From NCBI GenBank assembly GCA_964577395.1, contig CAZNYQ010000013.1:6409-70408 (forward strand): a stretch of 64,000 bases of DNA, given 5' to 3'. Both the position numbers and the translations under genes were made by a program. This document shows, piece after piece, positions 7,296 through 62,709 of this stretch. The notes under the pieces were generated by a model that saw only the letters and a program-made list of their open reading frames with translations, was not told the DNA's origin and did not search any database. Source of the DNA: an uncultured Candidatus Saccharibacteria bacterium (GTDB taxonomy: Bacteria; Patescibacteriota; Minisyncoccia; JBAYJV01). Position 1 is the first letter of the stretch; each line of letters starts with the position of its first letter.

Positions 7296-7311
7296 TTTTT
7301 AACTAAAATTT

Positions 7312-7761: not shown

Positions 7762-7764
7762 TTT

Positions 7765-28101: not shown

Positions 28102-28107
28102 TATATT

Positions 28108-28181: not shown

Positions 28182-28189
28182 TTTCAAAA

Positions 28190-28262
28190 GGGTGCGTAGC
28201 TCAATCGGTAGAGCAGGGGCCTCTTAAGCCCAAGGTTGGGGGTTCGATTCCCTTCGCACCCA
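28190..28262 (+). tRNA. tRNA-Lys (anticodon CUU)
   Basis: GGGTGCGTAGCTCAATCGGTAGAGC...; anticodon loop CTCTTAA; T-arm GGGGG-TTCGATT-CCCTT. Confidence 0.85.
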
Positions 28263-28329: not shown

Positions 28330-29274
28330 TTATTTCTTTTTATGATGATATTGTTCGTGAATTTTTTTTAGATTTTGATCAGTAATGTGAGTATAAATTT
28401 GAGTAGTAGATACATTAGCGTGTCCTAAAAGAGCCTGAACAGAGCGGAGGTCAGCACCTCCCGCTAAAAGATCTGTTGCGAACGAGTGTCTTAATGTATG
28501 TGGAGTAATTTTTTTAGTAATGCCAGCAGCTGTTGACCATTTTCTAACGATTCTTTGGATCGATCTCGGAGTAAGTCGGAGGTTATCGCTACCTCCTATT
28601 TTTTTAATTCTAACGAATAATGCCAAGTCAACATCTTTGCGTTTATTAAGATATGTTTTTAAGGCAGCCTTAGCATTATCTGATAAAAATACTACCCTTA
28701 CTTTTCCGCCCTTGCCTTTAATGCTTAATTCGCAAGTTTCAAAGTTAATTTTCTCTCTATCTAATTTACATAATTCAGATACTCGCAAGCCTGTGCTAAA
28801 AAGCATTTCTAAAATTGCTTTGTCCCTTAAACAGCTTAAATCAGTTTTTTTGCTCTTAAGAGGTGCTTTTAATAATCTTTCGATCTCTTGACTATTAAGT
28901 ATCTCAATTTCTTTCTCTGTTTTTTTAGCAAGTTCAATTTTATCTGGTGATAGACTTTTAATATCTTGTTTAATTAAATAGCGCAGAAAGTTTCTTAGTG
29001 CAATTAAATGATAATTTTGGGTAACACGCTTTAAAGTATTATTATTTAGACGATTAAGATAGAGACGATATTGCCTAATAAGTTCTTGGTCTATTTCTTG
29101 AGGATTTTTAATATTTGCCCAGGTTAAAAAACGTTCTAAATAACGCTTATAATTCTCAAGAGTTTTTTTGCTAGCTCCTTTTTCAATTTCTAAATATTCA
29201 AAATATCTCTGCGCTATATTTCTAATGGGGGGTTTGGTATTTTGTTGATTCATAATAATTTTATTATACGACAT
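28330..29274 (-). CDS. tyrosine site-specific recombinase XerC/XerD-like
   Basis: C-terminal catalytic region HTLRHSFATDLLAGGADLRSVQALLGHANVSTTQIYTHI and an N-terminal SAM-like domain. 314 aa. Confidence 0.85.
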   Translation of the reverse strand: MSYNKIIMNQQNTKPPIRNIAQRYFEYLEIEKGASKKTLENYKRYLERFLTWANIKNPQEIDQELIRQYRLYLNRLNNNTLKRVTQNYHLIALRNFLRYLIKQDIKSLSPDKIELAKKTEKEIEILNSQEIERLLKAPLKSKKTDLSCLRDKAILEMLFSTGLRVSELCKLDREKINFETCELSIKGKGGKVRVVFLSDNAKAALKTYLNKRKDVDLALFVRIKKIGGSDNLRLTPRSIQRIVRKWSTAAGITKKITPHTLRHSFATDLLAGGADLRSVQALLGHANVSTTQIYTHITDQNLKKIHEQYHHKKK

Positions 29275-47327: not shown

Positions 47328-48164
47328 ATGAGAAAACGATATATTCAAGAAATTTTAAATAGGTACGATAAAAGACCTATAAAAAGCATGGGGCAAAATT
47401 TTCTTCTTTCACAGAATGCTCTAAGTGAAATTTTAACTTTAGCAGATATAAAAACAAATGATGTGGTCGTAGAGATTGGGGCGGGAACAGGTGTTTTAAC
47501 AAAACAATTAGCTAAACTATCGGAACGAATTATAGCTATTGAAAAAGACGAAAAATTAACTTTAATACTGAAAGACCATTTTCACAATTTTGATAATGTT
47601 AAAATTGTCCAGGGGGATATCAGAAAAATAATTTCTTTCCAAAAAAATGACATACTAGACAATATTTCACGTTATAAAGTAATTGCTAATTTACCATATT
47701 ATCTAAGTAGTTTTGTAATAAGAAAATTTTTAGAAAGGAAGAATAAACCTGATTTAATAGTATTAATGCTTCAGAAGGAGTTAGTTGATAGAATTTGTGC
47801 TATTCCTGGCGCAATGAGTCTTTTATCTATTATGGTGCAATTGTATGCTACACCGCAAAAAGGATCGATCGTGAAGAAGAATAATTTTTATCCTAAACCT
47901 AAGGTAGATTCGCGCATTCTTTTAATTAAAAATATTAAACAAAAAATTAATTTTGACACTGAAACTTTTTTTAAAATCGTGAAAATAGCTTTTTCTTGTA
48001 AAAGAAAGAAATTAATTAATAATTTAGATAAAAACTTATTGATTAAACGTGATATTTTGATAGATATATTAAAAAAGATGGAGGTTGATGAGAATATTCG
48101 AGCCCAGGAGCTGTCAATCGAGCAATGGAAAGAGTTATATTCTCTTTTAAGAAAGTATTTATAA
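47328..48164 (+). CDS. rsmA: 16S rRNA (adenine1518/1519-N6)-dimethyltransferase RsmA/KsgA
   Basis: GQNFLLSQN, then the SAM motif VVEIGAGTGVLT, then the NLPY motif ANLPYYLSS. Confidence 0.85.
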   Translation: MRKRYIQEILNRYDKRPIKSMGQNFLLSQNALSEILTLADIKTNDVVVEIGAGTGVLTKQLAKLSERIIAIEKDEKLTLILKDHFHNFDNVKIVQGDIRKIISFQKNDILDNISRYKVIANLPYYLSSFVIRKFLERKNKPDLIVLMLQKELVDRICAIPGAMSLLSIMVQLYATPQKGSIVKKNNFYPKPKVDSRILLIKNIKQKINFDTETFFKIVKIAFSCKRKKLINNLDKNLLIKRDILIDILKKMEVDENIRAQELSIEQWKELYSLLRKYL

Positions 48165-48228: not shown

Positions 48229-49080
48229 ATGAAACGGAAAATTCTCTTCCTAATTTTTATTGTTGGAGGCGCTTTGTTATTAACGAATTTTTATTATTTA
48301 TCAAAGAATGATCAAGGTGCTTCTTTGCAAGATATTCAAAATTCCAATAATGAGACTGGTTTTATTTATTCTTTTTATAAAGATGATGATCTAGATGATT
48401 TATCAAATGCAAAAGAGAAAATTTATGGTTCTTTATACAATAAATCCGATACTGATAGTGATGGTTATTTAGATGGAGAAGAAGTTATGAATGGGTATGA
48501 TCCCATCAAAGCAGGTTCATATAAGTTAAGGGATCGCGATTATTTAAGTTTAAGCATTCAATATTTTATGTGGATGAGAGAAGTGAAAAATATAGATGAT
48601 CCTCAAATAAAGGAACGGTCTTTGGATGAATTTTTCAAACAAAATCCTCAATTTATGAAATTAGAAGAGATCAATGAACAAGAAATCTATCTTATTTCAG
48701 AAGATGATAAAGAAACCGTGGCACGGTATTTATCAGCTATAGAAAAAGTCGGGATACCAGAAGGTGTGGCAAGCTATCAGGAAATAGCTAGTAATTATAG
48801 CGAAGAAAGCAAAGAGCTCTTAAATGATATCCTAGATAAGCTTGAGCTTTCTTATCTAGATTTTCAAGCCATTGAGACGCCTTTATGCGCTAAGAAGATT
48901 CAAAAGAATTATTTAACGATTCTTAAAGAATTTTCAAGCTATTTTCAAGATCTCCAGTATTACCAAGAAGATCCTGTTCAGATTAATCTTAATACTTTGA
49001 AGGCTTCACAGCTTATTGATTTAGCTGAAGAAGCAGAGCGTTTAAAATTAGAATTATATAATAATTACGATATTAGATAA
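48229..49080 (+). CDS. hypothetical N-terminally anchored protein with Ca-binding-like DxDxDG motif
   Basis: N-terminal TM. DTDSDGYLDGEEVMNGYDP resembles thrombospondin-type-3 / dockerin-like calcium loops. It is the first gene of a long co-directional cluster. Confidence 0.45.
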   Translation: MKRKILFLIFIVGGALLLTNFYYLSKNDQGASLQDIQNSNNETGFIYSFYKDDDLDDLSNAKEKIYGSLYNKSDTDSDGYLDGEEVMNGYDPIKAGSYKLRDRDYLSLSIQYFMWMREVKNIDDPQIKERSLDEFFKQNPQFMKLEEINEQEIYLISEDDKETVARYLSAIEKVGIPEGVASYQEIASNYSEESKELLNDILDKLELSYLDFQAIETPLCAKKIQKNYLTILKEFSSYFQDLQYYQEDPVQINLNTLKASQLIDLAEEAERLKLELYNNYDIR

Positions 49081-49081
49081 T

Positions 49082-49786
49082 ATGTCTCGTGTTAAAAAAT
49101 ATATTTTGGGTTTATTGATTCTTGTCATTATTTTTGTAATTTCAGTTGTTGTTTTTGTAGAAAGAGATCAAGAAGGTAAGCTTAAATTTTCTCTTACAGG
49201 CAGCCAAACTAATATTATTTCAGATAATTTTAATGAGGTTATTCAACAAGAACTTACCCTAGATGATATAAATTGGTCTGATGCATATAATAAAGTGCTT
49301 AAACAGAAATATTCTAAAGATAACTTAAATCAAAAAGAGATTGAAATTTCTAGCGGTGCCTCTAAAATTTCTGAAGAAGAAGCTGAGATGGATGAAGATA
49401 ATAAAGAAATAATTTTTCAAAAGTTCGTTAATTATTTAAATAATTCAGAGACAAAACTTGATGAAAATAAGAATCCCTTTCAATTAGCTTTAAATTACCG
49501 AGACGAGGGAAGACCAGAGAAAATTGATGGTTTAATATCTTTTTATGATTCAAAGGTCACTAGTCTTGAGAAAGTAACGCCTCCAGAAGAAGTTTTAGGA
49601 TATCACTTGGTCAAATTAAGACTTTTAAGAGAAATTAAGCTTGCAGTCAGTAAAATTAAAACTTCTTCTCAGGAAATGCCCCTTAAAGAAGTTTTATCCG
49701 AAGAGGAGATTAATTATTTGGCGAGACTTGATTTAATTTTAAAACAATATTTAGTATATTTTTTCCATGACAGAACAAAGGCTTAA
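49082..49786 (+). CDS. hypothetical N-terminally anchored protein
   Basis: Start lies 2 nt after the upstream stop. One N-terminal TM helix and no recognisable motif. Confidence 0.4.
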   Translation: MSRVKKYILGLLILVIIFVISVVVFVERDQEGKLKFSLTGSQTNIISDNFNEVIQQELTLDDINWSDAYNKVLKQKYSKDNLNQKEIEISSGASKISEEEAEMDEDNKEIIFQKFVNYLNNSETKLDENKNPFQLALNYRDEGRPEKIDGLISFYDSKVTSLEKVTPPEEVLGYHLVKLRLLREIKLAVSKIKTSSQEMPLKEVLSEEEINYLARLDLILKQYLVYFFHDRTKA

Positions 49787-52571
49787 AAGAAAACAAAATA
49801 TATTAAGATTAATCTTGGGATTAGTTATTATTTCTACCTTTTTGGTGGGCAGTTTTGTAAGAAGTGTTATAGCGGTAAATATCACGGGCAGTACTGTTGT
49901 TAATGAGCATTTTGATAGTAGTATTCCTGGGTATGATATTTGTAAGGAGTTGAGGCATTTAACGGAACCACAAGAAGATCCAACCTTAAGTCCTCCTCGT
50001 GAAGTTTTTAAGTATACAGTAAGCTCATCAGAAGATGATAGCGGAGGGGTCATAGGTGGAGGTGATACAGATTCAGTTGTAACGCAAGAAGGCAGCATTT
50101 TTCAAAAATGGTTTCTTGATGCATGTGTAATGGATGGATATCTTACAGAAGTAAGACATGTTGCCACAATTCATAATTTTGATGTAAGAAACTCTGATAT
50201 TTTTCAAAGCCAAATGGGGAATAATGAAGGCACTCTCGGAGAGTTGTTTGAAATAGCTCTTATGGAGGTTACTAAAAATAAAACATGGATGACAGAAGGT
50301 GCTGGTAGTTTGAGGAATTTAAGTCTTAAAGATTTTCTATTAGAACTTACACACGAGGAAACAATGCAGGTTGAAAAAGATAAAGAATGGATGGAAGAGG
50401 ATATCAGTAGCTTAGAAAAATCAAGTATGAAAGATTTTCTATTAGAGCTTACTCATGAGAGTACAATGGAGGCAACAGAAGGATATGATGATGACAAAAA
50501 CGAAGAATTAACCAAGGCTAGCATTAAAGATTTTCTTTTATATGTTAAGGATTCGAACGAACAGTTTATGACAGATCTTATGCAAGCTTTATCAGAGAAA
50601 GAAAAACTTCATATAAGATCCTTAAAAGAATACGAATTGGCTAAGATAGAAAAGGCAAGAGAAGATGTTAATAAATTAACTTATGAAGTTTACAATGAGC
50701 TCAAGGAAGAGCCTCTTGTTTATAATAATAATGGAGTAACAGGTGACATAGTACGCTCTCTAGGACTGAGGGTAGTGGAAGAAGAAAGCAGTAGTTGTCC
50801 TTTTGGGGTAATAATAAAGAATAGCTCTGGAGAAGAAGAATGTGTAATTATCAAAAGAGAAGGAAGGGTAATTCAGAATGTAGATGATTATATCTATGAA
50901 GAAGCTATTCAAAAAGCCCGTGATTTTGTTATGTGTTTCTTGGCTCCTTGGAGACATTTTCCTATAGGAGAAGATTATTATTTTGCTGCATCTTTTGAAG
51001 AATTTAAGAGTGTGCAAGATCATAATGATAAACTTAGGGACGGGACGTCGCCAGATTATATATGGACGGGAGATCCTGTTTGTGGAGAAGAAGCCACAGC
51101 CGAGATTAGGAATAATGCTTGTAATACGGAATGCGGAGATGACTCAACAAGAATAGATAAATGGAAATCAAGTAATTATGGAGAAATTAATGATTGTCGC
51201 GAATGCATTCGCGAAGAGTTGGATAACAAATGCGATACAGAATATATTTGCGAAAAAGCACGGGAAGAAGCAGGAGATCGCCCCGATATGTTTAGTGATG
51301 ATTTTGAGGATTATCTTAAGAAGCTTTGTCCTAGCGATCAGATAAAAGAACAGATTAAAAGAGATTTATTATTTGATATGGCTCGCAAATACAAATTTTT
51401 ATATAATGCACCTCCAGAAAATTGGTACTATAATTCTGGAGCTTCTGGTAACGCCAATGATAAAACCAAATGTGCTCTCATATTAGCCAATTTAGGCTAT
51501 GATGTTGATGGTATTGTAGAAGAAGAAATTGGTAATCCTCTTAGGAGCAATATGATTAAAAAATATGCAGAATATCAAGAAGATGTCTGGAGAACGGAAT
51601 TGCCCATTTCAGTTGCCTACCGTCCAGATGTGAGTAATAAAGATTATAACAAGCAAAACGCCGCTTTGACCTCTAGTACTGGAGAAGGAGTGAAGTCTTT
51701 TGCTCAAAATCTTGTAGATGAGATTATTAGCGATTATGAAAGTCTTCGTACCGCTGAATATATAGCAGGCGAAGGTATTAGGTCGGAAAAATATTTAATA
51801 GGTTTTCCTGCTTATGATGATGTAGGTGACGCATTAGGGGTATACTTTATAGATACTGAAAATATTATCTCACCGGCAATTTTCTTAAAAGACAAAATTG
51901 CAGCAGCTACTCAAGCGCAATTTGACCTAGCTCAAAATGCTTGGAAACAAAAGCCTGAAGGGATTGGCGTCGGAGAGCTAGGTTGTCCCGACCCCCACAT
52001 TGGCGAGATGGATAAATCAGACTTTAGCGATAAAAAACCATATACTGCCCTAGAGAATAAATGTACGAACGAAGAATTGGAACATGGTTGGTATTTAGTT
52101 GAAATTTCAGATCCCGGCACTCCTGAAGATGAGAAAGAATATGAATGTCGCTGGCCACAGTATAACGACATTACATGTGAGGTTTTTGGCTATATTACTA
52201 CAGAAGCTATCACCGATGAATTACCTAAGGAATTACCAGCACCTTGGGAAGATATTAATGAATATATGGAGGTGCCGGAGGAATATGTAACTTGGTTTGA
52301 AGGTGATGTCAATGGTGTATCAGGAGAGCAATTGGGGCTTAAAAAAGCACCTCCAGCATTTGATATTCCTGAATATGGCACGCAATACCCTGATTTAACA
52401 GCTGACGATATTTATCCAAATATTTATCAAGAAGCTTATGGAAAAGATCAATCCCTTTCAATGCCTAATAGTGATAAATATTATATTAATAAATGGTATA
52501 AGAATATCACCCAGCTTTACGAAAAGCCGATGTCTGAAATTCTAAGAACTTGGTTTAAAGAGAACCCTTAA
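49767..52571 (+). CDS. large (934 aa) N-terminally anchored extracytoplasmic protein with 3x tandem ~37-aa repeat and a Cys-rich segment
   Basis: Overlaps the upstream ORF by 20 nt. Contains the (S/M)(L/M)KDFLLELTHE(E/S)TM repeat three times and a Cys-rich block CGEEATAEIRNNACNTECGDD...CRECIREELDNKCDTEYIC. Confidence 0.5.
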   Translation: MTEQRLKRKQNILRLILGLVIISTFLVGSFVRSVIAVNITGSTVVNEHFDSSIPGYDICKELRHLTEPQEDPTLSPPREVFKYTVSSSEDDSGGVIGGGDTDSVVTQEGSIFQKWFLDACVMDGYLTEVRHVATIHNFDVRNSDIFQSQMGNNEGTLGELFEIALMEVTKNKTWMTEGAGSLRNLSLKDFLLELTHEETMQVEKDKEWMEEDISSLEKSSMKDFLLELTHESTMEATEGYDDDKNEELTKASIKDFLLYVKDSNEQFMTDLMQALSEKEKLHIRSLKEYELAKIEKAREDVNKLTYEVYNELKEEPLVYNNNGVTGDIVRSLGLRVVEEESSSCPFGVIIKNSSGEEECVIIKREGRVIQNVDDYIYEEAIQKARDFVMCFLAPWRHFPIGEDYYFAASFEEFKSVQDHNDKLRDGTSPDYIWTGDPVCGEEATAEIRNNACNTECGDDSTRIDKWKSSNYGEINDCRECIREELDNKCDTEYICEKAREEAGDRPDMFSDDFEDYLKKLCPSDQIKEQIKRDLLFDMARKYKFLYNAPPENWYYNSGASGNANDKTKCALILANLGYDVDGIVEEEIGNPLRSNMIKKYAEYQEDVWRTELPISVAYRPDVSNKDYNKQNAALTSSTGEGVKSFAQNLVDEIISDYESLRTAEYIAGEGIRSEKYLIGFPAYDDVGDALGVYFIDTENIISPAIFLKDKIAAATQAQFDLAQNAWKQKPEGIGVGELGCPDPHIGEMDKSDFSDKKPYTALENKCTNEELEHGWYLVEISDPGTPEDEKEYECRWPQYNDITCEVFGYITTEAITDELPKELPAPWEDINEYMEVPEEYVTWFEGDVNGVSGEQLGLKKAPPAFDIPEYGTQYPDLTADDIYPNIYQEAYGKDQSLSMPNSDKYYINKWYKNITQLYEKPMSEILRTWFKENP
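50317..50560 (+). repeat. in-frame tandem repeat (3 copies, ~111 nt unit) inside the 49767-52571 ORF
   Basis: Nucleotide-level copies aaagattttctattagaacttacacacgaggaaacaatg, aaagattttctattagagcttactcatgagagtacaatg, and aaagattttcttttatatgttaaggattcg (degenerate). Confidence 0.5.
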
Positions 52572-52623
52572 TTTATTTTTAAAATATTGTTACCGAGAAA
52601 TTTTACAATACCTCATATTTTTA

Positions 52624-55600
52624 ATGTTTTTAAAATTAAAAAAATTTAAGTTTAATAAACAATGGTTGCCTTTCATTGCTTTAATATTGTCCTTTATATT
52701 TTTAATTTTTCCTAGAGGAGCTGCTCATGCAGGAGCAGGGGGATGGTTTGCTAGTCTTTTTTTAAGTCTATTAGGATTAATCCTGTATGTGCTAGCGGTG
52801 GCTTCTACTTTTATTCTTGGTATTGGTAGTAAGCTGTTGTCTTTTGTTATGACAACAACCTTTAATGAAGATCTTTTTATTGAAGCGCCTTTTGTTAAAG
52901 TAGCTTGGTCATTTACACGAGATTTCGCCAATTTATTTTTTATTCTTTGGCTTGTCATTATTGCCTTAGCTACAATTGTAGATGTAAAAGGTTATAGCGC
53001 TAAAAAATTATTGGTAAAACTTATTGTAGTAGCTTTATTAGTAAATTTCAGTTTAGTTTTGTGCTGTTTCATGCTAGATATTGCTCAAGGTGCGATGGGG
53101 TTCTTAACGCAATCAGTAATTGTAATTAAAGGAGAACCATTTTCACTGGCTGATGGACTATCTTATTCCTTTCGCCAGTCAGAACTTTTTGGTGCTCATC
53201 TGCCGTCAGGATCAAGCTTCTTTTTAGGAAATTTAGATTCCAGCATATCTACTGTAATGCATAATTTATTAGTGCTTGCTTTTTCTCTTATAGCAGCTTA
53301 TGTTTTTTTAATTTTATCAATTATGCTATTAGTTAGAGTTGTGGCGTTGTGGTTATTACTTATATTTGCTCCCTTAGCATGGACTTTCGGTATCATGCCT
53401 TTTGCTAAAAAAGCCTGGACAGAATGGATTAGTAAATTTTTTCAATGGGCATTCTACGGAGTAATAGTAGCTTTTTTAATGTATCTAGCTGCTATGGCAG
53501 TTTGGGCAATCCAAGAAGCTGAAGGATGGAGCGATAATTTAAATCAAGGAAGCGAGATGATGGGTAGTTTTGGTACGCAGGTTTCTTTTATAGAAAATTT
53601 TACCAGCATTTTAAGTTTTATAGTTGTAATTGTTCTTTTGCTAATGGCAAAAGGTGTTGGTATGTCAGCTGCTAAAAGCGGAGGAGATATGGTTACGAAT
53701 ATGGTGGCAGGTTATGTAGGAGGAAAAGCAGCCACTTGGGGGAAGAAACCAGTTCGCTATGCTAAAGATAAAGCACGAGATGTTAAGACAAGAACCAAAG
53801 GTGCTGTTGGTCGGAGCGTAATGCATGGGGGTGATATTCCGATTATAGGAAAAACAGTTAGAAGAGCAGGCACAAAATGGGCACTAGAAGATAAGCAGGA
53901 TAGATCACAGAAAGTGGGGAGATTTAGCGATTATTCTCAATTAAGCGATCAAGAACTTAAAGATATTAGCTCGAATATGGTAGGGCAAAAAGCTCAACAA
54001 GAAGAAATTGCTCAAGTTGCAAAATTAATGACTGATAGAAATCTTGTATATAATATAAGCGATGAAAAAGAGCTTAAGACGCTTCTTGATTCCCTGAAAA
54101 AGTTTGGAAATGATAGTGATGTTAAGAAATTTGAAGAAAAAAGACCAGATGCTATTCAAGCCAAAGGTCTTACGGTTCATGATATTATCGAAAGGCAACG
54201 CACGGGCCAGCCACTAGGAAGCGTTACGCTTCAAGAGGCTCGTCAATTACAAGAAAGAAGGCAAGAAGCTATTCAAAGAGCAATTAAAAATAACGAAGCT
54301 CAAAATTGGACGGAAGACTTTATCAGGAATAGTCTCTCTTCTGATCTTGTTGATGTTTTTGCGCAAGATAAAAATGGCGTAAAAATGATTAGTAAAGCAG
54401 CCGAAGATTGGGGCAGTGGAGTCAAAGAGTCTTTCTTAGAAAAAGTGATGGCGAATTTCTCAGATGATTTTGACGGAAATGATGCGGAAAGGAATTTAGC
54501 TGCTCGTAATTTTTATGGAAAATTAGGAGGGAATTATTATAAAGCTTATCATAGCGACGAGAAGGGCCGAATTGTTACTGATCCTAATTTTGTCAATAAC
54601 AATGTAAGGCAGACAGAGCTATTAGAAGCAATAGCAAAAATTAGCAGTACGAAAGATTGGGAAAAATTAGATGATAGTGACGAAAATCTTAAGCTTATCG
54701 CTCGACACATACAAAGTTCTCAAATCAACAATGCTGGACGTAATTTAGATAGCTATACTAAAGCTAAAATATATGATGAATTAAGGAAACAACGTCATGA
54801 TTCTTCTCTTGACCCAAGCGAACAAAAAGATCGCACAGAAGTTTATAAAACAATGACGTACAACGATACTTGGCCCGGCTCAATTACTGGAGATAGACTT
54901 GAGAAATTAAGAAAGCGCAAAGAAGAACGAGATAAGGAAAAGAAAGAAATGGATAAAATGCACGGAGAAGCTCTGCAAATGAACAAAGAATATGACAAGG
55001 AGCAACAAGAAAAACAACAAAAAGAAAGGGAAGAAATGAATAAGCTGCATGGAGAGGCAATAGAAGAAGACAGGTTGCGCGGAAAAGAGAAGGAAGCAAA
55101 AACAATAGAAGAAAGAGACAAAAAACAAAGAGAAGAAAAAGAAAAGGAGCGCCTAGAATTAGAAAAACAACGATTAGAGATGGAAAAGGAAAGACTTGAA
55201 ATGGAAAAGAAGAGATACAACAAAAAAGATAATGAGAAGGACAACGATGATGGTGATAACAATGGAGGGTTTTCTCAAAAAAAACCAACTCCTCCTCCTA
55301 GCACAGATTCAGGAGGAACGCAACGAACTCAATCGTCTGACAACAAACAGGATTATAATATTCGCGCTGATAGTGTTAATATTCAACCAAAAAGCACTCT
55401 TGACAACGGAAACACAAAAAATGTTAATTTAAATCAAAAAAATATCTCAATTAGCGAAGGAGAAAATGCTCCAAACCAAACAGTTGACCTAAGAGGAGAA
55501 AAAAAATCTCGCATAATAACACCAGAACCTCGTGGACATATTAAATTTTCCGAAGGTTCTGGGTGGACACCTCAACAGAAAAAAGATTTTGAAGAAAAGA

Positions 55601-56085
55601 GACAGCGCAAACATCAAGAAGCAATGGCTAAAAAACGAAAAACTAAATTAGGTAGCCAGAGCTTAAATAGGTTTAACGCTGGAGGGGTAAGCAATAATTC
55701 TCCCGAGCAAGCTTATCTACAAGGACAATACACTAGTCCCAAGGTATTAGGAGATAGCAAAACTATTCATATTGATGAAATCCCAGAGAAAAGTAAAATA
55801 TCTCAAGAAGGAGAGCAGAACATAACGGATAATAACTTAATGGAAATTACGCGTGTTCAGGCTCAGAGTGGTAAAATAAAAGAAGCAGTTAAGGGAGCTA
55901 AAAAAATACAAGATAGTGAGAAAAGAGGATATGCTTTATGGAATATTGCTGCCACTCAAGCGCAAAAGGGTAATTTTTCCGAGGCTCTTCGTATAGCACG
56001 TCAAATCGATCATGATAAAATCCGTAATTTAGCGATAAATGATTTAGAGTATTCGAAAGAAAGGGCACCGGAATCATATAGTTAA
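52624..56085 (+). CDS. VirB6/TrbL-like polytopic membrane protein with ~750-aa charged coiled-coil/low-complexity C-terminal extension (T4SS-like locus component)
   Basis: Signal/TM followed by ~8 TM helices in the first 350 aa, so a VirB6-like topology rather than sequence identity. The tail is K/E/R/D/Q-rich, with heptad-like runs KEKERLELEKQRLEMEKERLEMEKKRY, and ends in a Ser/Thr/Asn-rich region. Confidence 0.45.
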   Translation: MFLKLKKFKFNKQWLPFIALILSFIFLIFPRGAAHAGAGGWFASLFLSLLGLILYVLAVASTFILGIGSKLLSFVMTTTFNEDLFIEAPFVKVAWSFTRDFANLFFILWLVIIALATIVDVKGYSAKKLLVKLIVVALLVNFSLVLCCFMLDIAQGAMGFLTQSVIVIKGEPFSLADGLSYSFRQSELFGAHLPSGSSFFLGNLDSSISTVMHNLLVLAFSLIAAYVFLILSIMLLVRVVALWLLLIFAPLAWTFGIMPFAKKAWTEWISKFFQWAFYGVIVAFLMYLAAMAVWAIQEAEGWSDNLNQGSEMMGSFGTQVSFIENFTSILSFIVVIVLLLMAKGVGMSAAKSGGDMVTNMVAGYVGGKAATWGKKPVRYAKDKARDVKTRTKGAVGRSVMHGGDIPIIGKTVRRAGTKWALEDKQDRSQKVGRFSDYSQLSDQELKDISSNMVGQKAQQEEIAQVAKLMTDRNLVYNISDEKELKTLLDSLKKFGNDSDVKKFEEKRPDAIQAKGLTVHDIIERQRTGQPLGSVTLQEARQLQERRQEAIQRAIKNNEAQNWTEDFIRNSLSSDLVDVFAQDKNGVKMISKAAEDWGSGVKESFLEKVMANFSDDFDGNDAERNLAARNFYGKLGGNYYKAYHSDEKGRIVTDPNFVNNNVRQTELLEAIAKISSTKDWEKLDDSDENLKLIARHIQSSQINNAGRNLDSYTKAKIYDELRKQRHDSSLDPSEQKDRTEVYKTMTYNDTWPGSITGDRLEKLRKRKEERDKEKKEMDKMHGEALQMNKEYDKEQQEKQQKEREEMNKLHGEAIEEDRLRGKEKEAKTIEERDKKQREEKEKERLELEKQRLEMEKERLEMEKKRYNKKDNEKDNDDGDNNGGFSQKKPTPPPSTDSGGTQRTQSSDNKQDYNIRADSVNIQPKSTLDNGNTKNVNLNQKNISISEGENAPNQTVDLRGEKKSRIITPEPRGHIKFSEGSGWTPQQKKDFEEKRQRKHQEAMAKKRKTKLGSQSLNRFNAGGVSNNSPEQAYLQGQYTSPKVLGDSKTIHIDEIPEKSKISQEGEQNITDNNLMEITRVQAQSGKIKEAVKGAKKIQDSEKRGYALWNIAATQAQKGNFSEALRIARQIDHDKIRNLAINDLEYSKERAPESYS

Positions 56086-56113
56086 TTAAGTAATAAAATT
56101 TATATTTATCCTC

Positions 56114-56977
56114 ATGCATCAGCAATTTGATGAAAAATTTGAACAGTTACCTCCGTATATTAAAGAATGGATGGCCGAAGAATCACCTCATCTAAATGAA
56201 GAGGTTGCAAAAGAGCACAATTTGAGTCTAGAAGAGGTTGAGAAAATGAAGAAAATTGTTGTTCATACAATACTGGGATTTTTTAATTTAAATGATTTTT
56301 TGTCTCATTTAAAAGATAGTTTTCCCAAACTTACAGAAGAAGAAATCAAAAAATTAGCTCTTGACATTGTTATTAAACGTTTCTATCCAATCAGAGACTA
56401 TCTTAAGGACGTTGATGGTCTCATTAAAAATTTAGGAGGTTCGTTGCCTGAGAATAAAGAGTTTTATAAAAAAGAATTTGAAGAAAAAAATCCACAAATT
56501 GTTGTCACCCAAGAGGAGAAAAAATCATCTCAAGGTAGTCAAGACATTGTTTATATAGGAATTGGTAGTTTGCTCAATAAACAAGAGATTAAAGATCAAT
56601 TTATTACCTCTAAAAAGATAACTGTAAACGATTCAGGAGAAGAAGTAGGTGGCACATTAAATAACTGGATAGCTGATTATAAAAGAGAGAAGGGAGAACC
56701 TCCACATTCAAGTTTAGAACGTCAAGTATATCTTTCGCAAGCTATGAATCCTAAAAAATTAGATAATTCAGAACGAATTATTCTAGGAGAAATTTTAAAA
56801 GCTTACGATCAAGGGACGGAACTACCCATTTCAAAAGAAAGTAGTAAAATTATTTTGAGTGAAGTTTTTCATAAAGGTAACCTTACACAGAAGATAGGCT
56901 TTCAAAATAATAAAGATGAAAACAGAGTAGAAAAGGACAATAAGCCAAATTCTACAATTGATTTACGTAATTCTTAA
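56114..56977 (+). CDS. hypothetical soluble protein in T4SS-like locus
   Basis: 287 aa, acidic and lysine-rich, no TM and no recognisable motif. It is tightly packed between the VirB6-like and PrgI-like genes. Confidence 0.4.
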   Translation: MHQQFDEKFEQLPPYIKEWMAEESPHLNEEVAKEHNLSLEEVEKMKKIVVHTILGFFNLNDFLSHLKDSFPKLTEEEIKKLALDIVIKRFYPIRDYLKDVDGLIKNLGGSLPENKEFYKKEFEEKNPQIVVTQEEKKSSQGSQDIVYIGIGSLLNKQEIKDQFITSKKITVNDSGEEVGGTLNNWIADYKREKGEPPHSSLERQVYLSQAMNPKKLDNSERIILGEILKAYDQGTELPISKESSKIILSEVFHKGNLTQKIGFQNNKDENRVEKDNKPNSTIDLRNS

Positions 56978-56980
56978 ACT

Positions 56981-57391
56981 ATGAGATATCAATTACCTCA
57001 ATTTATTGAAATGGAAGATAAGCTTATAGGACCGCTTACATTAAGGCAGTTCTTATATTTAATTGCTGTGCCGATAATTTGTTATCTTCTGCATTTTTTT
57101 GTTCGCTTGCCGTATGTTATCATGGTAGGAGTTATATTTTTTCCCATAGCTTTATTGCTTGCTTTTTATAGAATTAACGGTAGACCTTTTACTCATGCTT
57201 TTTTGGGATTGTTAAGATTCGTTAAGAAACCTCAAATGTATGTTTGGGAGAGGAGCATGCATAGAGTAAGTCAAGAAGAAGGTGTAGAAAAAACAACTGA
57301 CGATGAAAAGCAAAAAAATTCTGTGGAAAATAAGAAAAAGAAGAAAGACTTTAAAAAATTAGCCCAAGCCCTTGATCAAGGTAATACTTAA
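56981..57391 (+). CDS. PrgI-family / VirB3-like small membrane protein
   Basis: MRYQLPQFIEMEDKLIGPLTLRQFLYLIAVPIICYLL... followed by a second TM helix. This matches the PrgI pattern of Gram-positive T4SS, and it is encoded immediately before the VirB4 genes, as PrgI is before PrgJ. Confidence 0.5.
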   Translation: MRYQLPQFIEMEDKLIGPLTLRQFLYLIAVPIICYLLHFFVRLPYVIMVGVIFFPIALLLAFYRINGRPFTHAFLGLLRFVKKPQMYVWERSMHRVSQEEGVEKTTDDEKQKNSVENKKKKKDFKKLAQALDQGNT

Positions 57392-57411
57392 AATACTTGT
57401 TTTAAAATATA

Positions 57412-58062
57412 ATGGCTTTTAATCCATCACAAAAACTTGTTCCCATCAAAGAAATACGAGAAGGAGTTGTCATTTTGAAAAGCGGTGCCTTAAGGGCAGT
57501 GCTTTTAGTGTCGAGCATTAATTTTTCTCTTAAGTCCAATGAAGAACAGGAGGCAATCATTGCAAAATTTCAAGGATTTCTTAACTCTCTTGATTATCCT
57601 ATTCAGACAATTATTCAATCCCGTAAACTTAAAATAGATAAATATCTAGCCAGTATAAAAGAATTAGAAAAATCTCAAGAGAACGAACTTTTACGGGTTC
57701 AAACGTCTGAATATCATAATTTTATTAAAGAGCTTGTTGCTTCAGCCAATATTATGAATAAGAGCTTCTATGTTGTTATTTCTTACTCCCTAGGAGAAGG
57801 TTCTCAAAAGAAGGGTTTTCTCGGTATGGTTAAAGATGTTGCAGGTAGCTCTAGTCAAGTTAGTCAAAAACGTTTTAAACAACTTAAAGCTCAATTGTGG
57901 CAAAGAGTTGATCATGCAGCTGCTAGCTTATCAAGCATGGGAATTAGAGTGGTCCCTCTTAATACGCAAGAATTAATCGAACTTTATTATGAGCTCTATA
58001 ATCCGGGAGCTGACAATAAAAGAGATTTATCAGCGCCCGAAGAGATGGGGTTAAAAAATTAA
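57412..58062 (+). CDS. VirB4/TrbE/ConE-family N-terminal domain encoded as a separate ORF (split VirB4)
   Basis: LVPIKEIREGVVILKSGALRAVLLVSSINFSLKSNEEQEAIIAKFQGFLNSL resembles the characteristic VirB4 N-terminus. The ORF ends 5 nt before the ATPase ORF, which is in a different frame. Confidence 0.55.
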   Translation: MAFNPSQKLVPIKEIREGVVILKSGALRAVLLVSSINFSLKSNEEQEAIIAKFQGFLNSLDYPIQTIIQSRKLKIDKYLASIKELEKSQENELLRVQTSEYHNFIKELVASANIMNKSFYVVISYSLGEGSQKKGFLGMVKDVAGSSSQVSQKRFKQLKAQLWQRVDHAAASLSSMGIRVVPLNTQELIELYYELYNPGADNKRDLSAPEEMGLKN

Positions 58063-58067
58063 TTTTT

Positions 58068-60071
58068 ATGTCAGATCAATCTAAAAAACAAAAAGCATCA
58101 GTCCATAGTCAAGAAGATAATAACCATAATTCAGATAAAAAATTTATAGTTATTGAAACTATGCCTAAGGACCTAAAGGATGAAAAACAGGATACGACTA
58201 GTAAGAATAAGAATAACAAGAGGCAAGTCAACCATAAAGAAATTATTAAAAAAATTAAAAATACTAACAAGAAAAAGAAGCAAAAAAAAGGTTTTCTTAA
58301 TAATCTCTTAGGTGGAGGCAAGGAAAAAACATCTTATGAGAAAGGAGTTGCTACCTTAAAAGACTTATTAGCACCTTCAGCTCTTAAAATAGAATCTCAA
58401 TATCTTCAACTAGGCGATAAATACTTAAGGACTATTTTTGTCTTAAATTATCCTAGATATCTTCATAGTGCGTGGCTATCTTCCATTATTAATTTAGATA
58501 GAGTTTTTGATATTTCTATTTTTGTTCACCCAGTTGAAAGCTCAACTATCTTAAAAAATCTTCAAAAGAAACTAGCTCGTGTTCAAGCTCAAATTACAGA
58601 TCGAGAAGAACAGGGAAGAGTTCGTGACCCGAAGCTCGAAACTGCCTATAACGATATTGAAGATTTAAGAGATCGTTTGCAAACTGGACAAGAGAAGTTC
58701 TTTCAGGCAGGTGTATATTTAACAATTTACGCAGACAGCTTAAAAGACCTGGATGAGGGGGTTGCCGAGATTAGGAATATTTTAGAATCTCAATTAATCT
58801 ATGCTAAACCTGCTCTGTTTATCCAAGAAGACGGTCTTCATTCAACTTTTCCTTATGCTCAGGACAAACTTCAAGTTTTAACGAGCATGAATACGCAACC
58901 CTTATCGACTATTTTTCCTTTCGTTTCCTCGGATCTTAGCTCTAATAAAGGTATTCTATATGGGGTAAATAGGCATAATAATAGTTTAATTCTTTTTGAT
59001 AGATTTAATTTAGAAAATGCCAATATGGTAATTTTTGGAGTATCAGGAGCTGGTAAAAGTTACGCTGTTAAACTAGAGGTTCTTAGGCAGCTTATGACAG
59101 GGACTGATGTATTAATTATTGACCCCGAAAATGAATATCAGTATTTAGCAGAAGCAGTTGGAGGTACTTTTGTTAAAATATCATTAAGTTCACCATACCA
59201 TATTAATCCCTTTGACGTGCCCGAACCGGCTGAAAATGAAGATCTGGGTAGCATCCTAAGATCGCATTTTGGCACTATCACAGGTATGTTAAAAATGCTT
59301 TTAGGTAATTTATCAGCAGAAGAAGAGGCTATTTTAGATAAAGCAGTAATAGAAACATATGCTTCTAGAGATATTACCCCTGACAATGATTTTATGAAAA
59401 AAGATATCACGCCTCCTAAAATGCAGGACTTGCAAGAAGTTTTAGAAGGCATGGAGGGAGCTAAAAGCTTAGCGATTAAGCTGGAAAAATATACAAAAGG
59501 TACTTTCTCTGAATTTTTAAATAATTATACTAATATTGATATTAAAAAAGGATTAATGGTTTTTAATATTCGAGATGTGGAGGAGGAATTAAGGCCAGTA
59601 GCGATGTATGTAATTTTAAATTATATTTGGCGTTTAGTGCGGTCTAAATTAAAAAAGAGACTTTTAATAGTTGATGAAGCTTGGTGGATGATGCGTCATA
59701 AAGCAGGTGCGGAGTTTTTGTTTAGTATGGCTAAAAGAGCCCGTAAATATTATTTAGGATTAACAACTATTACTCAAGACGTAGCCGATTTTGCTAACTC
59801 AGAATATGGTAAACCAATTATAACCAACTCATCTCTTCAATTGCTCTTAAAACAATCTCCTGCCACTATTCAGGAAGTAGCTCGCATTTTTAACCTAACT
59901 CAAGAAGAAAAATATTTATTGCTAGAAGGAGAAGTAGGCGAAGGTCTTTTTTTCGCAGGACTTAAACATGTTGCTATTAAAATAGTAGCTTCTTACAGTG
60001 AGGATCAAGTAATTACCTCTGACCCAAAGCAACTTTTAGAGATTGAAGAAGCTAAGAAAAAACTTGGTTAA
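58068..60071 (+). CDS. VirB4/TrbE/ConE-family type IV secretion ATPase (central and C-terminal ATPase domains), with Lys/Asn-rich N-terminal linker
   Basis: Central region YLRTIFVLNYPRYLHSAWLSSIINLD is like the VirB4 middle domain. Walker A is FGVSGAGKSY and Walker B is LLIVDEAWWMM; DEAW is characteristic of VirB4. Confidence 0.8.
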   Translation: MSDQSKKQKASVHSQEDNNHNSDKKFIVIETMPKDLKDEKQDTTSKNKNNKRQVNHKEIIKKIKNTNKKKKQKKGFLNNLLGGGKEKTSYEKGVATLKDLLAPSALKIESQYLQLGDKYLRTIFVLNYPRYLHSAWLSSIINLDRVFDISIFVHPVESSTILKNLQKKLARVQAQITDREEQGRVRDPKLETAYNDIEDLRDRLQTGQEKFFQAGVYLTIYADSLKDLDEGVAEIRNILESQLIYAKPALFIQEDGLHSTFPYAQDKLQVLTSMNTQPLSTIFPFVSSDLSSNKGILYGVNRHNNSLILFDRFNLENANMVIFGVSGAGKSYAVKLEVLRQLMTGTDVLIIDPENEYQYLAEAVGGTFVKISLSSPYHINPFDVPEPAENEDLGSILRSHFGTITGMLKMLLGNLSAEEEAILDKAVIETYASRDITPDNDFMKKDITPPKMQDLQEVLEGMEGAKSLAIKLEKYTKGTFSEFLNNYTNIDIKKGLMVFNIRDVEEELRPVAMYVILNYIWRLVRSKLKKRLLIVDEAWWMMRHKAGAEFLFSMAKRARKYYLGLTTITQDVADFANSEYGKPIITNSSLQLLLKQSPATIQEVARIFNLTQEEKYLLLEGEVGEGLFFAGLKHVAIKIVASYSEDQVITSDPKQLLEIEEAKKKLG

Positions 60072-60090
60072 TATGTATCGTTAAACTTTT

Positions 60091-60414
60091 ATGAGTGTTA
60101 ACTCTCAAGGGCAATCAGCAGAGAATGAATATATAAGAAAAAGCAGATTAGATAGAGTTAGGCGCATAGCTATGAACAAAAAAGCTAAAAAGGAAGCAAT
60201 GCGTCAAGGAGCCAAAGAAAAACTTAAAAAACAAGCTAAGAAGAAAGCTGCCTCAGTAGCCTTAAAAAAGATTTTTATTGCGATTGCGCCTTACTTGTTC
60301 ATACTGATTATTGCTTTTATTGCTTTTGCTGGTTTGATATATTATGTTTGTGAGGGCGGAGGTCTTGTAGCGTCAATTCTACGTCTTACGTCCCTTGGTA
60401 ATGTATGTCCTTGA
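60091..60414 (+). CDS. hypothetical small bitopic membrane protein with Lys-rich N-terminus (T4SS-like locus)
   Basis: 107 aa with one TM helix (IFIAIAPYLFILIIAFIAFAGLIYYV). No recognisable motif. Confidence 0.4.
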   Translation: MSVNSQGQSAENEYIRKSRLDRVRRIAMNKKAKKEAMRQGAKEKLKKQAKKKAASVALKKIFIAIAPYLFILIIAFIAFAGLIYYVCEGGGLVASILRLTSLGNVCP

Positions 60415-60429
60415 TTATATATATAAAAT

Positions 60430-61203
60430 ATGTTTAATTTTTTGAAAATTCAAAGATTAGCTATACTTACTTTAGTTTTTTTAATAATTTCTTTTTCCTT
60501 TTCTACCATTTTTATTGCTCTAGCTGGAGATAGTTCAGCTGGGCCTGGTGAGTTTGATGAAAAGGAAAGAGAGCCCTTTGAATACAAATTGATGGTTCCT
60601 CTGCCCACAGCAAGCGGAACTGTGGCAACAACAACAGGCATTGTTGATTATATCAAAACTCTTTATCTTTTTGGCATGGGTATTGCAGGCATCCTTGCGA
60701 TGGCAATGATTATTGTTGGAGGTTTTCAATGGATGGGTGGAGGTAGTATTACATCAACAAGAGCTGCTAAATCTCGAGTTTCCAATGCTGTTCTAGGTCT
60801 AGTTTTATTATTAGCAGCTTATTTAATCTTAAACACTATAAATCCTGCCTTAGTTAATTTAAAAGAACCCTATATTTATTTTATAGAGTGGTACAGAGAT
60901 TTCCCTGATGATGGGAATACTGGAACAGGTGGAACAGGTGGAGGAGGTGGATCAGATCCATGTGATGATATGGATTCTTGTTCTGAGTATAATTTTTATA
61001 TTGATTGCGTGAATGATATTTGTTCGTTAGGATGTACTATCAGTGAATGTGATATTTTAGATAGTAGTGATACATTTGGATGTGTTCAGAAAAACATTAC
61101 TAGTTGTAGTGATTATATGTTTTCAATATCTTGCCAGACTGATCCTTGTGGTGTTGGCGGGTGTAGTTATGATACTAACACAAAAACTTGTGCTAATAAT
61201 TAA
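60430..61203 (+). CDS. VirB2/TrbC-like two-helix 'pilin-like' membrane protein with Cys-rich C-terminal domain
   Basis: Signal peptide ending at a candidate ALA|GDS cleavage site. Two hydrophobic helices (LYLFGMGIAGILAMAMIIVGGF and AVLGLVLLLAAYLILNTI) separated by a short basic loop, which is the T4SS pilin topology. Then a Gly-rich linker TGTGGTGGGGGS and a ~90-aa domain with 14 Cys. Confidence 0.4.
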   Translation: MFNFLKIQRLAILTLVFLIISFSFSTIFIALAGDSSAGPGEFDEKEREPFEYKLMVPLPTASGTVATTTGIVDYIKTLYLFGMGIAGILAMAMIIVGGFQWMGGGSITSTRAAKSRVSNAVLGLVLLLAAYLILNTINPALVNLKEPYIYFIEWYRDFPDDGNTGTGGTGGGGGSDPCDDMDSCSEYNFYIDCVNDICSLGCTISECDILDSSDTFGCVQKNITSCSDYMFSISCQTDPCGVGGCSYDTNTKTCANN

Positions 61204-61482
61204 AATATATTATTTTTTATAAAGAGGTAACTTAATTTTTGTGAGTACCTAATAATAATTTATTTATATATAATTTAGTTAATAACTAAGAAAACTTTAC
61301 AAAACTTAATGGCATCAATCGAGTGAATAGAGAAGGAGTTATCGATTATTTCTAGTTGATGATTAGTATATTTTTTAGTTAATGGTTGCCAGAAAAACAT
61401 TATTATAGATTAACGATTTGATTAATGATTTATAAAAATTAATTTTTCTTCTTATAAAATTTTATTCTTTAATATTATCAAA

Positions 61483-62709
61483 ATGAAACTTAATTTTCGC
61501 AAATTATTAATAATAGGAATCATAATATTAGGTATTGTTGTGCTTATTTTAGGCGTATGGATTCTTTTTTTTGGAGGCGAGAAAGATGGTCAAGAAAATA
61601 AGCCAATAGACATGGAAAACAGTAATTTAGAGAACGAAAGCAACGCTAGTGAGTTTAATCAATTAGAATCAGATATTCAAAGTCAAACTAAGGCAGATGA
61701 ATTTAATCAAAAGATTGAAGAAATAAAATTATCGGAAAAGGTAAGCATTTTATCAGATAGGCCAGTCATTGGAATTACTTTAAATAAAACAGGGGATAGA
61801 GTGGTCTATTATGATAGAGATACAGGTCAGGTTTTTCGTATTAGTTTTGACGGCAAGGTATGGGAAAGAGTTTCTGACATAGAAAATGATAACATTCAGA
61901 GCGTTCAATGGTCTCTAGATGGCAGCAAGTCAATTGTTAAAAATCAAAAAGGAGACACAATAGATACTTATATATATGATAGTCAAAATGGCCAAATATA
62001 TGACTTAAATGACAAGATTGGATCAATCGTTTTTTCGCCTGATGGAAGAAGAATACTTTATCATTTTTGGGATAGTTATAATAAGAGCAATATTGCAATT
62101 GCTAATTATGATGGCAGTAATTGGGAAGAACTTTTTAAAAGTAGTATGACAGGATTAAAACTTTATTGGCCTAAGCTTGATACGGTGGCTTTCCTATCGC
62201 CAGGAGGTGACTTTTATGGTGCTGATTTATATTTTACTAAGCTAGACTCACCTTATCAGTTAGATAAAATTTTAGATGATAAGTTTAATTTACGAGTTAA
62301 TTGGGCTCCTAGCGGAATAAGGTTATTGTATAGCTATAAGACAAAAAAAGAGAGTAGTCGTAGAAGGTTTTATTTAAGAGATTATGATAAAAAAACTGAT
62401 ACGTCTCTATCTTTCAATGCTTTACCTGAAAATTGTGTCTGGAACAAAGATGAAACTTCTCTATACTGCGCTGAAAAGACAACTAATTTTACTGATATTA
62501 TTCCCAATGATTATCAAAAAAAGCTATCTTTAGAAAGTGATAGCTTTTGGAAAATTGATTTTCAAGCTCAAGAATTTCAAGAAATATATATTCCTGAAAA
62601 GGAAGAAGAAAAGGTTTATAACATAGGAGAATTAATTGTTTCAGATAATGAAGACTATTTATTCTTTATCAATAAACTGGACGGGAAACTTTACAGCTTG
62701 AGAATTTAA
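61483..62709 (+). CDS. N-terminally anchored TolB-like beta-propeller (PD40-repeat) protein
   Basis: N-terminal TM. Recurring SxDG motifs (WSLDGSKSIV, FSPDGRRILYHF, WAPSGIRLLYSY) are typical of TolB / PD40 blades. Confidence 0.5.
   Translation: MKLNFRKLLIIGIIILGIVVLILGVWILFFGGEKDGQENKPIDMENSNLENESNASEFNQLESDIQSQTKADEFNQKIEEIKLSEKVSILSDRPVIGITLNKTGDRVVYYDRDTGQVFRISFDGKVWERVSDIENDNIQSVQWSLDGSKSIVKNQKGDTIDTYIYDSQNGQIYDLNDKIGSIVFSPDGRRILYHFWDSYNKSNIAIANYDGSNWEELFKSSMTGLKLYWPKLDTVAFLSPGGDFYGADLYFTKLDSPYQLDKILDDKFNLRVNWAPSGIRLLYSYKTKKESSRRRFYLRDYDKKTDTSLSFNALPENCVWNKDETSLYCAEKTTNFTDIIPNDYQKKLSLESDSFWKIDFQAQEFQEIYIPEKEEEKVYNIGELIVSDNEDYLFFINKLDGKLYSLRI

Follow-up and report, generated by a model that had tools for sequence, protein, structure and literature searches.

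The 64,000-nucleotide stretch of contig CAZNYQ010000013.1 analysed here (hereafter the window) carries at 52624-61203 a genuine gene cluster of a type IV secretion system (T4SS). The cluster is the chromosomal, relaxase-less version known from Patescibacteria (candidate phyla radiation, CPR), which has already been described, and the locus is a typical further example of it and not a new kind of machine. Seven open reading frames (ORFs), all on the forward strand and separated by intergenic gaps of 3-28 bp, fill the interval (Table 1). An earlier interpretation made from the letters alone (the sequence-only reading) had correctly recognised a co-directional and tightly spaced arrangement, but had counted eight genes. 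Six of the seven encode recognisable or predicted components of a membrane system and the remaining one a soluble protein, which the sequence-only reading had left unnamed. All ORFs of the cluster are intact, and the presence of such long ORFs across the interval is far from chance expectation in DNA of 30-36% guanine plus cytosine (GC). The GC content is uniform, and there is no compositional break at the locus. Specific to this copy are a VirB6 tail that is about 450 amino acids (aa) longer than in the closest relative, a hypervariable, Cys-rich C-terminus of the pilin and the absence of a PKD-like protein that is conserved elsewhere.

Table 1. Genes of the T4SS locus and its neighbourhood in the window, and the number of related Patescibacteria loci (out of 80) in which the respective slot is filled. 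TM, transmembrane.
Feature	Position	Strand	Product and remarks	Related loci
ksgA	47328-48164		ends 64 bp upstream of the 48229 gene	31 by tblastn (many contigs end early upstream)
N-anchored extracytoplasmic protein, c15 family	48229-49080	+	283 aa; Ca-binding TSP3/EF-hand-like motif	31 (anchored, ~306 aa)
N-anchored protein, divergent paralogue of the 48229 gene	49082-49786	+	234 aa; TM helix at residues 8-26	
Large N-anchored protein, lineage-specific	49767-52571	+	934 aa; 18 Cys; TM helix at residues 12-30	38 (slot of family c12, ~600 aa, without a member in the window)
VirB6-like polytopic membrane protein	52624-56085	+	1153 aa; seven hydrophobic segments	63
Soluble protein	56114-56977	+	287 aa; fills the conserved slot between VirB6 and PrgI	51 (one cluster)
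PrgI/VirB3-like protein	56981-57391	+	136 aa; two hydrophobic helices	75
TrsD-like protein	57412-58062	+	216 aa; separately encoded homologue of the VirB4 N-terminal domain, not a membrane protein	77
VirB4 ATPase, monoderm CD1110/MPF-FATA type	58068-60071	+	667 aa; K/N-rich N-terminal linker	80
Small single-pass membrane protein	60091-60414	+	107 aa; K-rich N-terminus; TM helix at residues 61-79	variable
Secreted PKD/Ig-like protein, family c5	absent from the window		~329 aa in other loci	61
VirB2-like T4SS pilin	60430-61203	+	257 aa; PF18895	65
N-anchored TolB-like beta-propeller	61483-62709	+	408 aa; TM helix at residues 9-27; directly downstream of the pilin gene	60 by clustering

The VirB4 protein exceeds the cutoff of NF045971, the NCBIfam equivalog for VirB4-like conjugal transfer ATPases of the CD1110 family (382 bits against 325), as well as that of PF03135 (27.6 bits against 21). 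It also matches PF19044 (E=1.3e-27), PF12846 and PF01935, and both its Walker A (GVSGAGKS, residue 324) and Walker B (LLIVDE, residue 532) motifs are intact. These matches confirm the VirB4 assignment of the sequence-only reading. Identity as an FtsK/TraG-type coupling protein is not supported: the sole match to a coupling-protein model has E=0.0064 and 15 bits against a cutoff of 366. Scanning one genome per species with this VirB4 sequence, followed by tblastn, ORF calling and clustering, gave the 80 related loci compared throughout. These best 80 genomic relatives are all metagenome-assembled genomes (MAGs) of Patescibacteria with 55-75% identity in VirB4, which is a strong nearest-neighbour proxy for membership in the Patescibacteria VirB4 clade.

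The gene in front of virB4 encodes a TrsD-like protein, which matches NF045975 (E=3.5e-13, profile positions 104-234), positions 2-140 of NF045971 and the TrsD model NF041427 (E=2.5e-7), and which is recorded as PF26593 (TraC-like) in the source collection. It had been taken for one of two small membrane proteins; only the other one, encoded directly after virB4, has a clear TM helix. The TrsD-like ORF lies in another frame than virB4, but a frameshifted single VirB4 is ruled out and the split is genuine, because the two-gene arrangement recurs in 77 of the 80 loci. The PrgI-like protein, likewise foreseen from the sequence, scores 34.3 bits on PF12666 (cutoff 27). Its gene lies directly 5' of the TrsD-VirB4 pair in 75 of the 80 loci, and the protein is the presumed membrane anchor of VirB4.

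The first protein of the cluster is VirB6-like at the level of family and predicted structure only. Pfam and NCBIfam scans with the full protein as a single sequence were empty, and the assignment draws on its homologues, a profile of the family and a structure prediction. Database homologues of residues 1-430 carry PF04610 and PF19590 (the former matched directly by 4 of 23 homologues, best E 2e-9), and PF19590 (TrbL_3) is also on record in the source collection for exactly this protein. The family profile matches TrwI/VirB6 of R388 (7o3v_F, E=5e-4). In a Foldseek search of the Protein Data Bank (PDB) with the AlphaFold2 model (predicted local distance difference test, pLDDT, 74; predicted TM-score, pTM, 0.65), TrwI/VirB6 chains of R388 took the top six places and seven of the top eight, with a probability of 0.99-1.00 and a target TM-score of ~0.5, which bears out the VirB6 assignment proposed earlier. 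The protein starts with a TM domain (residues ~1-400) and a hydrophilic region, continues with an E/K-rich tail (~750-900; E+K = 38% over residues 750-900) and low-complexity sequence, and ends in a module of helical repeats (~1066-1142). This helical-repeat C-terminus matches TON_1535 (3zpj, E=1.2e-5). The protein is considerably longer than its relatives, which typically have 650-850 aa (702 aa in the closest relative, locus L001). As the sequence behind the last hydrophobic helix is rich in K/R, the positive-inside rule suggests a cytoplasmic tail.

The last gene of the interval encodes the pilin. Its product reaches 29.4 bits on PF18895 (T4SS_pilin, cutoff 26.6), a family carried by 37 of 43 homologues, so that the VirB2-like pilin of the sequence-only reading is upheld by family membership. 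A weak match was obtained to NF045849, a pilin-like model of the Mycoplasma integrative and conjugative element (ICE; E=0.016), while a profile search against PDB yielded no matches. The protein begins with a signal or leader peptide; a two-helix hydrophobic hairpin (residues 68-150) is joined by a Gly-rich linker to a C-terminal domain (177-257) that contains 12 Cys. The mature N-terminus is well conserved; among the same close homologues the core is 65% identical, whereas the 81-residue tail is 19% identical and poorly alignable. In the AlphaFold2 model (overall pLDDT 63) the hairpin at 71-137 is predicted at pLDDT ~80, and the tail is not confidently predicted. Canonical VirB2/TrbC pilins have ~70-120 aa in their mature form and comprise the hairpin only, in contrast to the pilin here, in which a Gly-rich linker and 12-Cys domain of together ~105 aa follow the hairpin. 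Such extended pilins are the norm in the clade, with a family median of 304 aa in the related loci. A search of the six-frame translation of the 64-kb window with a hidden Markov model (HMM) for further pilin paralogues recovered this single gene only.

Gene content, family memberships and gene order across the 80 species are matters of direct observation. The loci belong to Patescibacteria MAGs labelled Portnoy-, Azam-, Specht-, Nomura-, Paceibacterota etc., and share the order ksgA, anchored proteins, VirB6, soluble protein, PrgI, TrsD, VirB4, small TM protein, pilin and TolB-like propeller; in most of them yidC, rnpA, dnaA and dnaN follow the block. The position next to ksgA is shared by the window and 31 of the 80 loci, in keeping with the earlier statement that the locus is embedded among core genes, and the conserved order answers the question of synteny in related genomes in the affirmative. 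We interpret this pattern as an indication that the locus is vertically conserved next to ksgA. Because the gene order around the locus is common to related Patescibacteria loci, the conserved module is probably larger than 52624-61203 and spans roughly 48229-62709, although homology to T4SS components within this range is confined to the seven core genes. The tight spacing extends upstream through the three anchored-protein genes (gaps of +1, -20 and +52 bp), and a gap of 279 bp separates the pilin gene from the propeller gene downstream. A scan for promoter and terminator consensus sequences gave counts not above those of shuffled controls and thus no operon boundaries.

Two of the seven core genes encode proteins that matched no Pfam or NCBIfam model. 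The soluble protein has a conserved N-terminal helical domain of ~100 aa followed by a variable linker, lacks a TM segment, and its family profile found nothing in PDB. Its slot is conserved: 13 homologues found with phmmer lie at the same position in other loci, and a single BLAST cluster fills the slot between VirB6 and PrgI in most of the loci (Table 1). In the family alignment (A4) a conserved DPYRE(P)I motif, preceded by a Pro-rich linker, closes the sequence of many members; the copy in the window is without it. The slot directly after virB4, by contrast, is fast-evolving. Only L001 among the 80 loci has a recognisable homologue of the 107-aa protein; other loci hold unrelated small TM proteins there, and hhalign likewise showed no relation of the 107-aa protein to those families.

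The neighbouring genes differ in how firmly they can be tied to the cluster. The 48229 protein, with one N-terminal hydrophobic segment and a weak match to PF18884, is recognised by the c15 HMM built from the related loci (E=1.8e-60), and c15 proteins occupy the slot between ksgA and VirB6 in 23 of the 31 loci that have them. The c15 profile matched PDB in the Ca-binding repeat only, and the protein is a candidate accessory component. The adjacent 49082 protein is a divergent relative (c15 HMM E=8.6e-6; hhalign probability 92%). It further gave a very weak, unconfirmed match to the VirB8-like TrsH/TraH model NF041428 (E=0.035; 14 bits against a cutoff of 150). The 934-aa protein belongs to no Pfam or NCBIfam family and sits in the slot held in other genomes by family c12, to which, as to c5, it is unrelated according to hhalign. 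Among the 80 loci it is matched by L001 alone, at the C-terminal end only, where the L001 contig begins. From its position it is a possible surface protein or substrate. The suggestion of the sequence-only reading that these three upstream proteins could be surface partners is partly supported, by synteny for the c15 protein and by paralogy for its 49082 neighbour.

On the downstream side, the TolB-like gene, conserved but omitted from the sequence-only reading, probably belongs with the module as judged from its conserved position. A tblastn search found the family in 56 of the 80 loci. The family profile matches TolB with E=1e-10, and there are weak matches to beta-propeller families of Pfam. 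We are not aware of this propeller being listed as a T4SS component in the published survey of Patescibacteria systems. The c5 family of PKD/Ig-like proteins, encoded in L002-L080 between virB4 and the pilin gene (e.g., L021:11320-12309), was not found in any of the six frames of the window. A PKD-domain protein is encoded downstream of the window on the JGI contig that carries the same VirB4.

The locus corresponds closely to what has been described for Patescibacteria. VirB4 was found in 2,417 of 3,035 Patescibacteria genomes (~80%), and 2,425 VirB4 proteins form a monophyletic Patescibacteria clade nested in the FATA class of monoderm mating-pair formation systems (MPF-FATA), with a phylogeny congruent with taxonomic class (Quiñonero-Coronel et al. 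2025, PMC12102498). Among the associated components of that survey TrsD is the commonest; PrgI-type VirB3, VirB6 and VirB2-like pilins are encoded close to virB4, VirB8 and VirB1 occur rarely, and the systems are chromosomal and often close to KsgA, RnpA, DnaA and DnaN (PMC12102498). The window shares the defining features, i.e., a VirB4 with its NTPase motifs, a separate TrsD, PrgI/VirB3, VirB6 and a VirB2-like pilin, encoded chromosomally beside ksgA and without an adjacent relaxase or type IV coupling protein (T4CP); its placement in the clade is by the nearest-neighbour proxy. It differs in having one pilin gene instead of an array of 2-11, in its Paceibacteria-type extras (the c15 family and the TolB-like propeller), and in lacking the PKD-like protein of its relatives. 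In Southlakia epibionticum (S. epibionticum) a peptidase or lysozyme gene follows virB4, whereas none does so here, and no hydrolase domain was found in the cluster. Since chromosomal, relaxase-less T4SSs of monoderm origin, with VirB2-like pilins and repurposed beyond conjugation, are already published (PMC10633639, PMC12102498, PMC12857230, the last a T4SS review that covers the Patescibacteria systems), the novelty implied by the sequence-only reading does not stand.

With the monoderm MPF-FATA systems (C. difficile CTn/CD1110, pGO1/pSK41 Trs, pCF10 Prg, Mycoplasma ICE Mbov_0395-0397) the locus shares a VirB4 of the CD1110 family, a PrgI-type VirB3 and the lack of outer-membrane core components, and as in pGO1 its TrsD precedes VirB4. 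It departs from these systems in that relaxase, coupling protein, VirB1-type hydrolase and PrgB-type adhesin are all missing from the window, as is any recognisable VirB8-like protein, and in that the locus is not on a mobile element and possesses a VirB2-like pilin, normally lacking in Gram-positive systems. The Gram-negative VirB/Trw system of R388 (PDB 7o3v, 8rt9) has in common with it the VirB6-like TM domain, which matches TrwI/VirB6 by profile and predicted fold, and the logic of a VirB3-VirB4-VirB6-VirB2 pilus-assembly core, which is the likely working model here. By contrast, VirB5, VirB7, VirB9, VirB10 and VirB11 of R388 have no counterpart in this locus, which belongs to a monoderm envelope and has an extended VirB6 and a pilin with a C-terminal domain.

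VirB4 passes the cutoff of a conjugal-transfer ATPase model, and the locus could accordingly be read as a functional system for conjugation or mobilisation. It would then be a degenerate ICE or a chromosomal conjugation system, with relaxase, coupling protein and oriT encoded at other sites of the genome. Homologues of T4CPs are indeed common in Patescibacteria genomes and usually distant from virB4 (PMC12102498), and the window contains an XerC/D-like tyrosine recombinase (28330-29274, reverse strand) that adjoins tRNA-Arg(tct) and tRNA-Lys(ctt) at 28107-28262. The claim of the sequence-only reading that the window is free of integrases therefore has to be qualified, but its observation that none flanks the locus holds: the recombinase lies 24 kb upstream of the cluster with housekeeping genes in between, and neither a recombinase nor a tRNA borders the T4SS genes. 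It could be the chromosomal dimer-resolution recombinase or mark an integration hotspot. As stated previously, no VirD4/TcpA-type coupling protein, relaxase or VirB1-type hydrolase is present among the window ORFs of at least 110 aa that were scanned, a scan outside which remained a small number of short ORFs as well as antisense ORFs contained within annotated genes. The features that define a conjugative element, namely relaxase, T4CP and mobile-element boundaries, were thus not found in the available sequence.

An identical VirB4 on a JGI metagenome contig (3300001335 ML8_10000112, 96.8 kb, here L081) provided the downstream flank. The 7 kb beyond the window hold, like the scanned ORFs in the rest of the window, housekeeping genes or genes of unknown function and no conjugation genes, so that relaxase, T4CP and VirB1 are absent from ~70 kb inspected. 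Just beyond the T4SS this contig encodes recG, a 153-aa membrane protein and a comF-like gene (DZR_2 + Pribosyltran; L081:15810-19335). Occurrence of comF, recG and radA near the T4SS has been reported for the class ABY1 (PMC12102498); here the recG/comF association is found although the relatives of this VirB4 are Paceibacteria-type. Relaxases are known from only 103 of 3,035 Patescibacteria genomes (PMC12102498), and the position next to ksgA in many species together with the class-congruent VirB4 phylogeny of that survey speaks for vertical inheritance and not a mobile element. We consequently regard a conjugation or mobilisation system as quite improbable. An ICE is rejected on account of the core-gene context, the uniform GC content and a position conserved across species.

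A second alternative is that the locus represents a decaying relic of an ancient conjugative element without present function. Missing VirB8, VirB1 and T4CP could be read in this way, as could the absence of the PKD-like gene that 61 related loci have kept. However, the intact ORFs and ATPase motifs, the preserved gene order and a VirB4 that remains 55-75% identical over 80 species speak for maintenance, and retention of a dead cluster of 8.5 kb would be unlikely in strongly reduced genomes. Moreover, the orthologous system is essential in S. epibionticum (PMC10633639). We consider decay to be extremely improbable.

The literature on relatives instead suggests a function in the contact with host cells. 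In S. epibionticum the cluster SEML1_0006-0019, its pilins included, is essential for epibiotic growth on the host and contains no recognisable relaxase or coupling protein (Wang et al. 2023, PMC10633639). By analogy, we consider it likely that the locus is a Patescibacteria-type T4SS descended from monoderm MPF-FATA conjugation machinery, which would have lost its DNA-processing half and would serve host contact and macromolecule exchange in an epibiotic lifestyle rather than conjugation. This agrees with the sequence-only reading, in which the locus was a chromosomal, possibly non-conjugative surface apparatus derived from a T4SS and not an ICE; the lack of conjugation-specific genes and the conserved synteny both support that view. 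An apparatus for host contact and macromolecule exchange, be it for export or import, is most likely.

The main rival is an import machine for nucleic acids, comparable to ComB of Helicobacter or Ced of archaea, which would feed an organism unable to make nucleotides on DNA or RNA of its host. The recG and comF-like genes just downstream and the corresponding neighbourhood in ABY1 are in line with this explanation, as are weak matches of VirB4 to the CedB and CedD models and a 2026 preprint that describes tubular structures where a cultivated Minisyncoccota parasite touches its host and links this parasite to feeding on host RNA (bioRxiv 10.64898/2026.06.21.733656). Yet the CedB and CedD scores of 36 and 26 bits are far under the cutoffs of 700 and 600, and the cluster encodes no component for DNA binding or DNA processing. 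In S. epibionticum the competence pathway uses type IV pili (T4P) and ComEC; deletion mutants of comEC are viable, whereas the T4SS is essential (PMC12857230). Import of nucleic acids as the dedicated function is, in our judgement, unlikely.

Several observations weigh against the preferred reading of a host-contact and exchange apparatus and have to be considered along with it. The essentiality data stem from Saccharimonadia, another class, and no Paceibacteria-type locus has a demonstrated function. The score of the pilin on PF18895 is only ~3 bits above threshold, and Foldseek, queried with the AlphaFold2 model of the pilin, returned generic helical hairpins only (best E 1.6) and did not recover VirB2/TraA, so that the structural comparison added no support to the family match. 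The closest relative, L001 (VirB4 75% identical), has no pilin gene at the pilin position, i.e., between the TolB-like gene and its counterpart of the 107-aa protein (L001:6468-6895); the pilin may therefore not be required or may have its gene at another site. Neither a VirB8-like nor a VirB1-like component was detected in the window, the TrsH/TraH match of the 49082 protein being the only hint of a VirB8. The absence of relaxase and T4CP applies to the ~70 kb inspected, and recG and comF are compatible with a role related to DNA.

For a host-contact apparatus, the R388 system suggests how the parts may act together. There, VirB4 hexamers dock on VirB3, and a VirB6 pentamer is the membrane base for assembly of the VirB2 pilus (PMC9259494). 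In analogy, VirB4 and the separate TrsD domain would dock on the membrane via PrgI/VirB3, and the VirB6-like protein would form the membrane platform. Pilin subunits would be pulled from the membrane and polymerised on this platform into a VirB2-type filament or conduit across the monoderm wall. The C-terminal domain of the pilin, variable and rich in Cys, might then be exposed on the outside of the filament and serve to recognise the host.

Both termini of F-type pilins are located on the exterior of the pilus, and for this reason the Cys-rich tail would plausibly decorate the surface of the filament. It is possible, as a tentative extension, that the T4SS pilin of the Paceibacteria type is a fusion of pilin and adhesin, in which the core builds the filament and the disulfide-rich, hypervariable tail sets host specificity, and that the c15 paralogues, the large Cys-rich anchored protein and the TolB-like propeller replace the functions of VirB5, VirB8 and VirB1 in crossing the wall; as a whole we hold this proposal to be somewhat doubtful. 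To our knowledge, neither a pilin-adhesin fusion nor such a substitute set of extracytoplasmic proteins has been analysed in published surveys.

The remainder of the window has a chromosomal character, with genes for protein quality control (groEL, clpP, trigger factor and ftsH), transcription and RNA turnover (nusA, polynucleotide phosphorylase and RNase Y) and ribosome-related functions (ksgA and a homologue of ribosomal protein S1), besides a proton-translocating pyrophosphatase (H+-PPase), a class II ribonucleotide reductase and glycosyltransferases. Between groEL and ksgA, the reverse strand encodes an N-anchored protein of 993 aa with 16 Cys and no family match (44273-47254), which is a possible surface protein. 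The ribonucleotide reductase depends on B12 and has an ATP cone; together with the genes that follow it, for a corrinoid adenosyltransferase and for DUF4430 and DUF6580 (4447-8331, forward strand), it looks like a B12 salvage or uptake cluster supporting nucleotide reduction. A Fic/DOC-domain protein with an N-terminal helix-turn-helix (29-958, reverse strand) possibly forms part of a toxin-antitoxin or AMPylation module. Finally, a tRNA-Ile with the anticodon UAU is present at 23786-23859 on the reverse strand; this anticodon is uncommon in bacteria, in which AUA is usually read by a lysidine-modified CAU tRNA.

Few envelope machines have been linked to the epibiotic way of life of Patescibacteria, a very large and mostly uncultured part of bacterial diversity, and their T4SS is one of them. 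The locus reported here leaves the general picture of this system unchanged and adds a clean, compact example of the Paceibacteria type, with a single pilin gene and no array. The comparison of 80 loci highlights conserved neighbours that have remained unannotated, i.e., the c15 family, the TolB-like propeller and the soluble protein whose gene separates those of VirB6 and PrgI, as well as the variable C-terminal domain of the pilin. Once a host-parasite pair of Paceibacteria becomes tractable, these neighbours, together with the pilin tail, are concrete targets for structural and genetic work.

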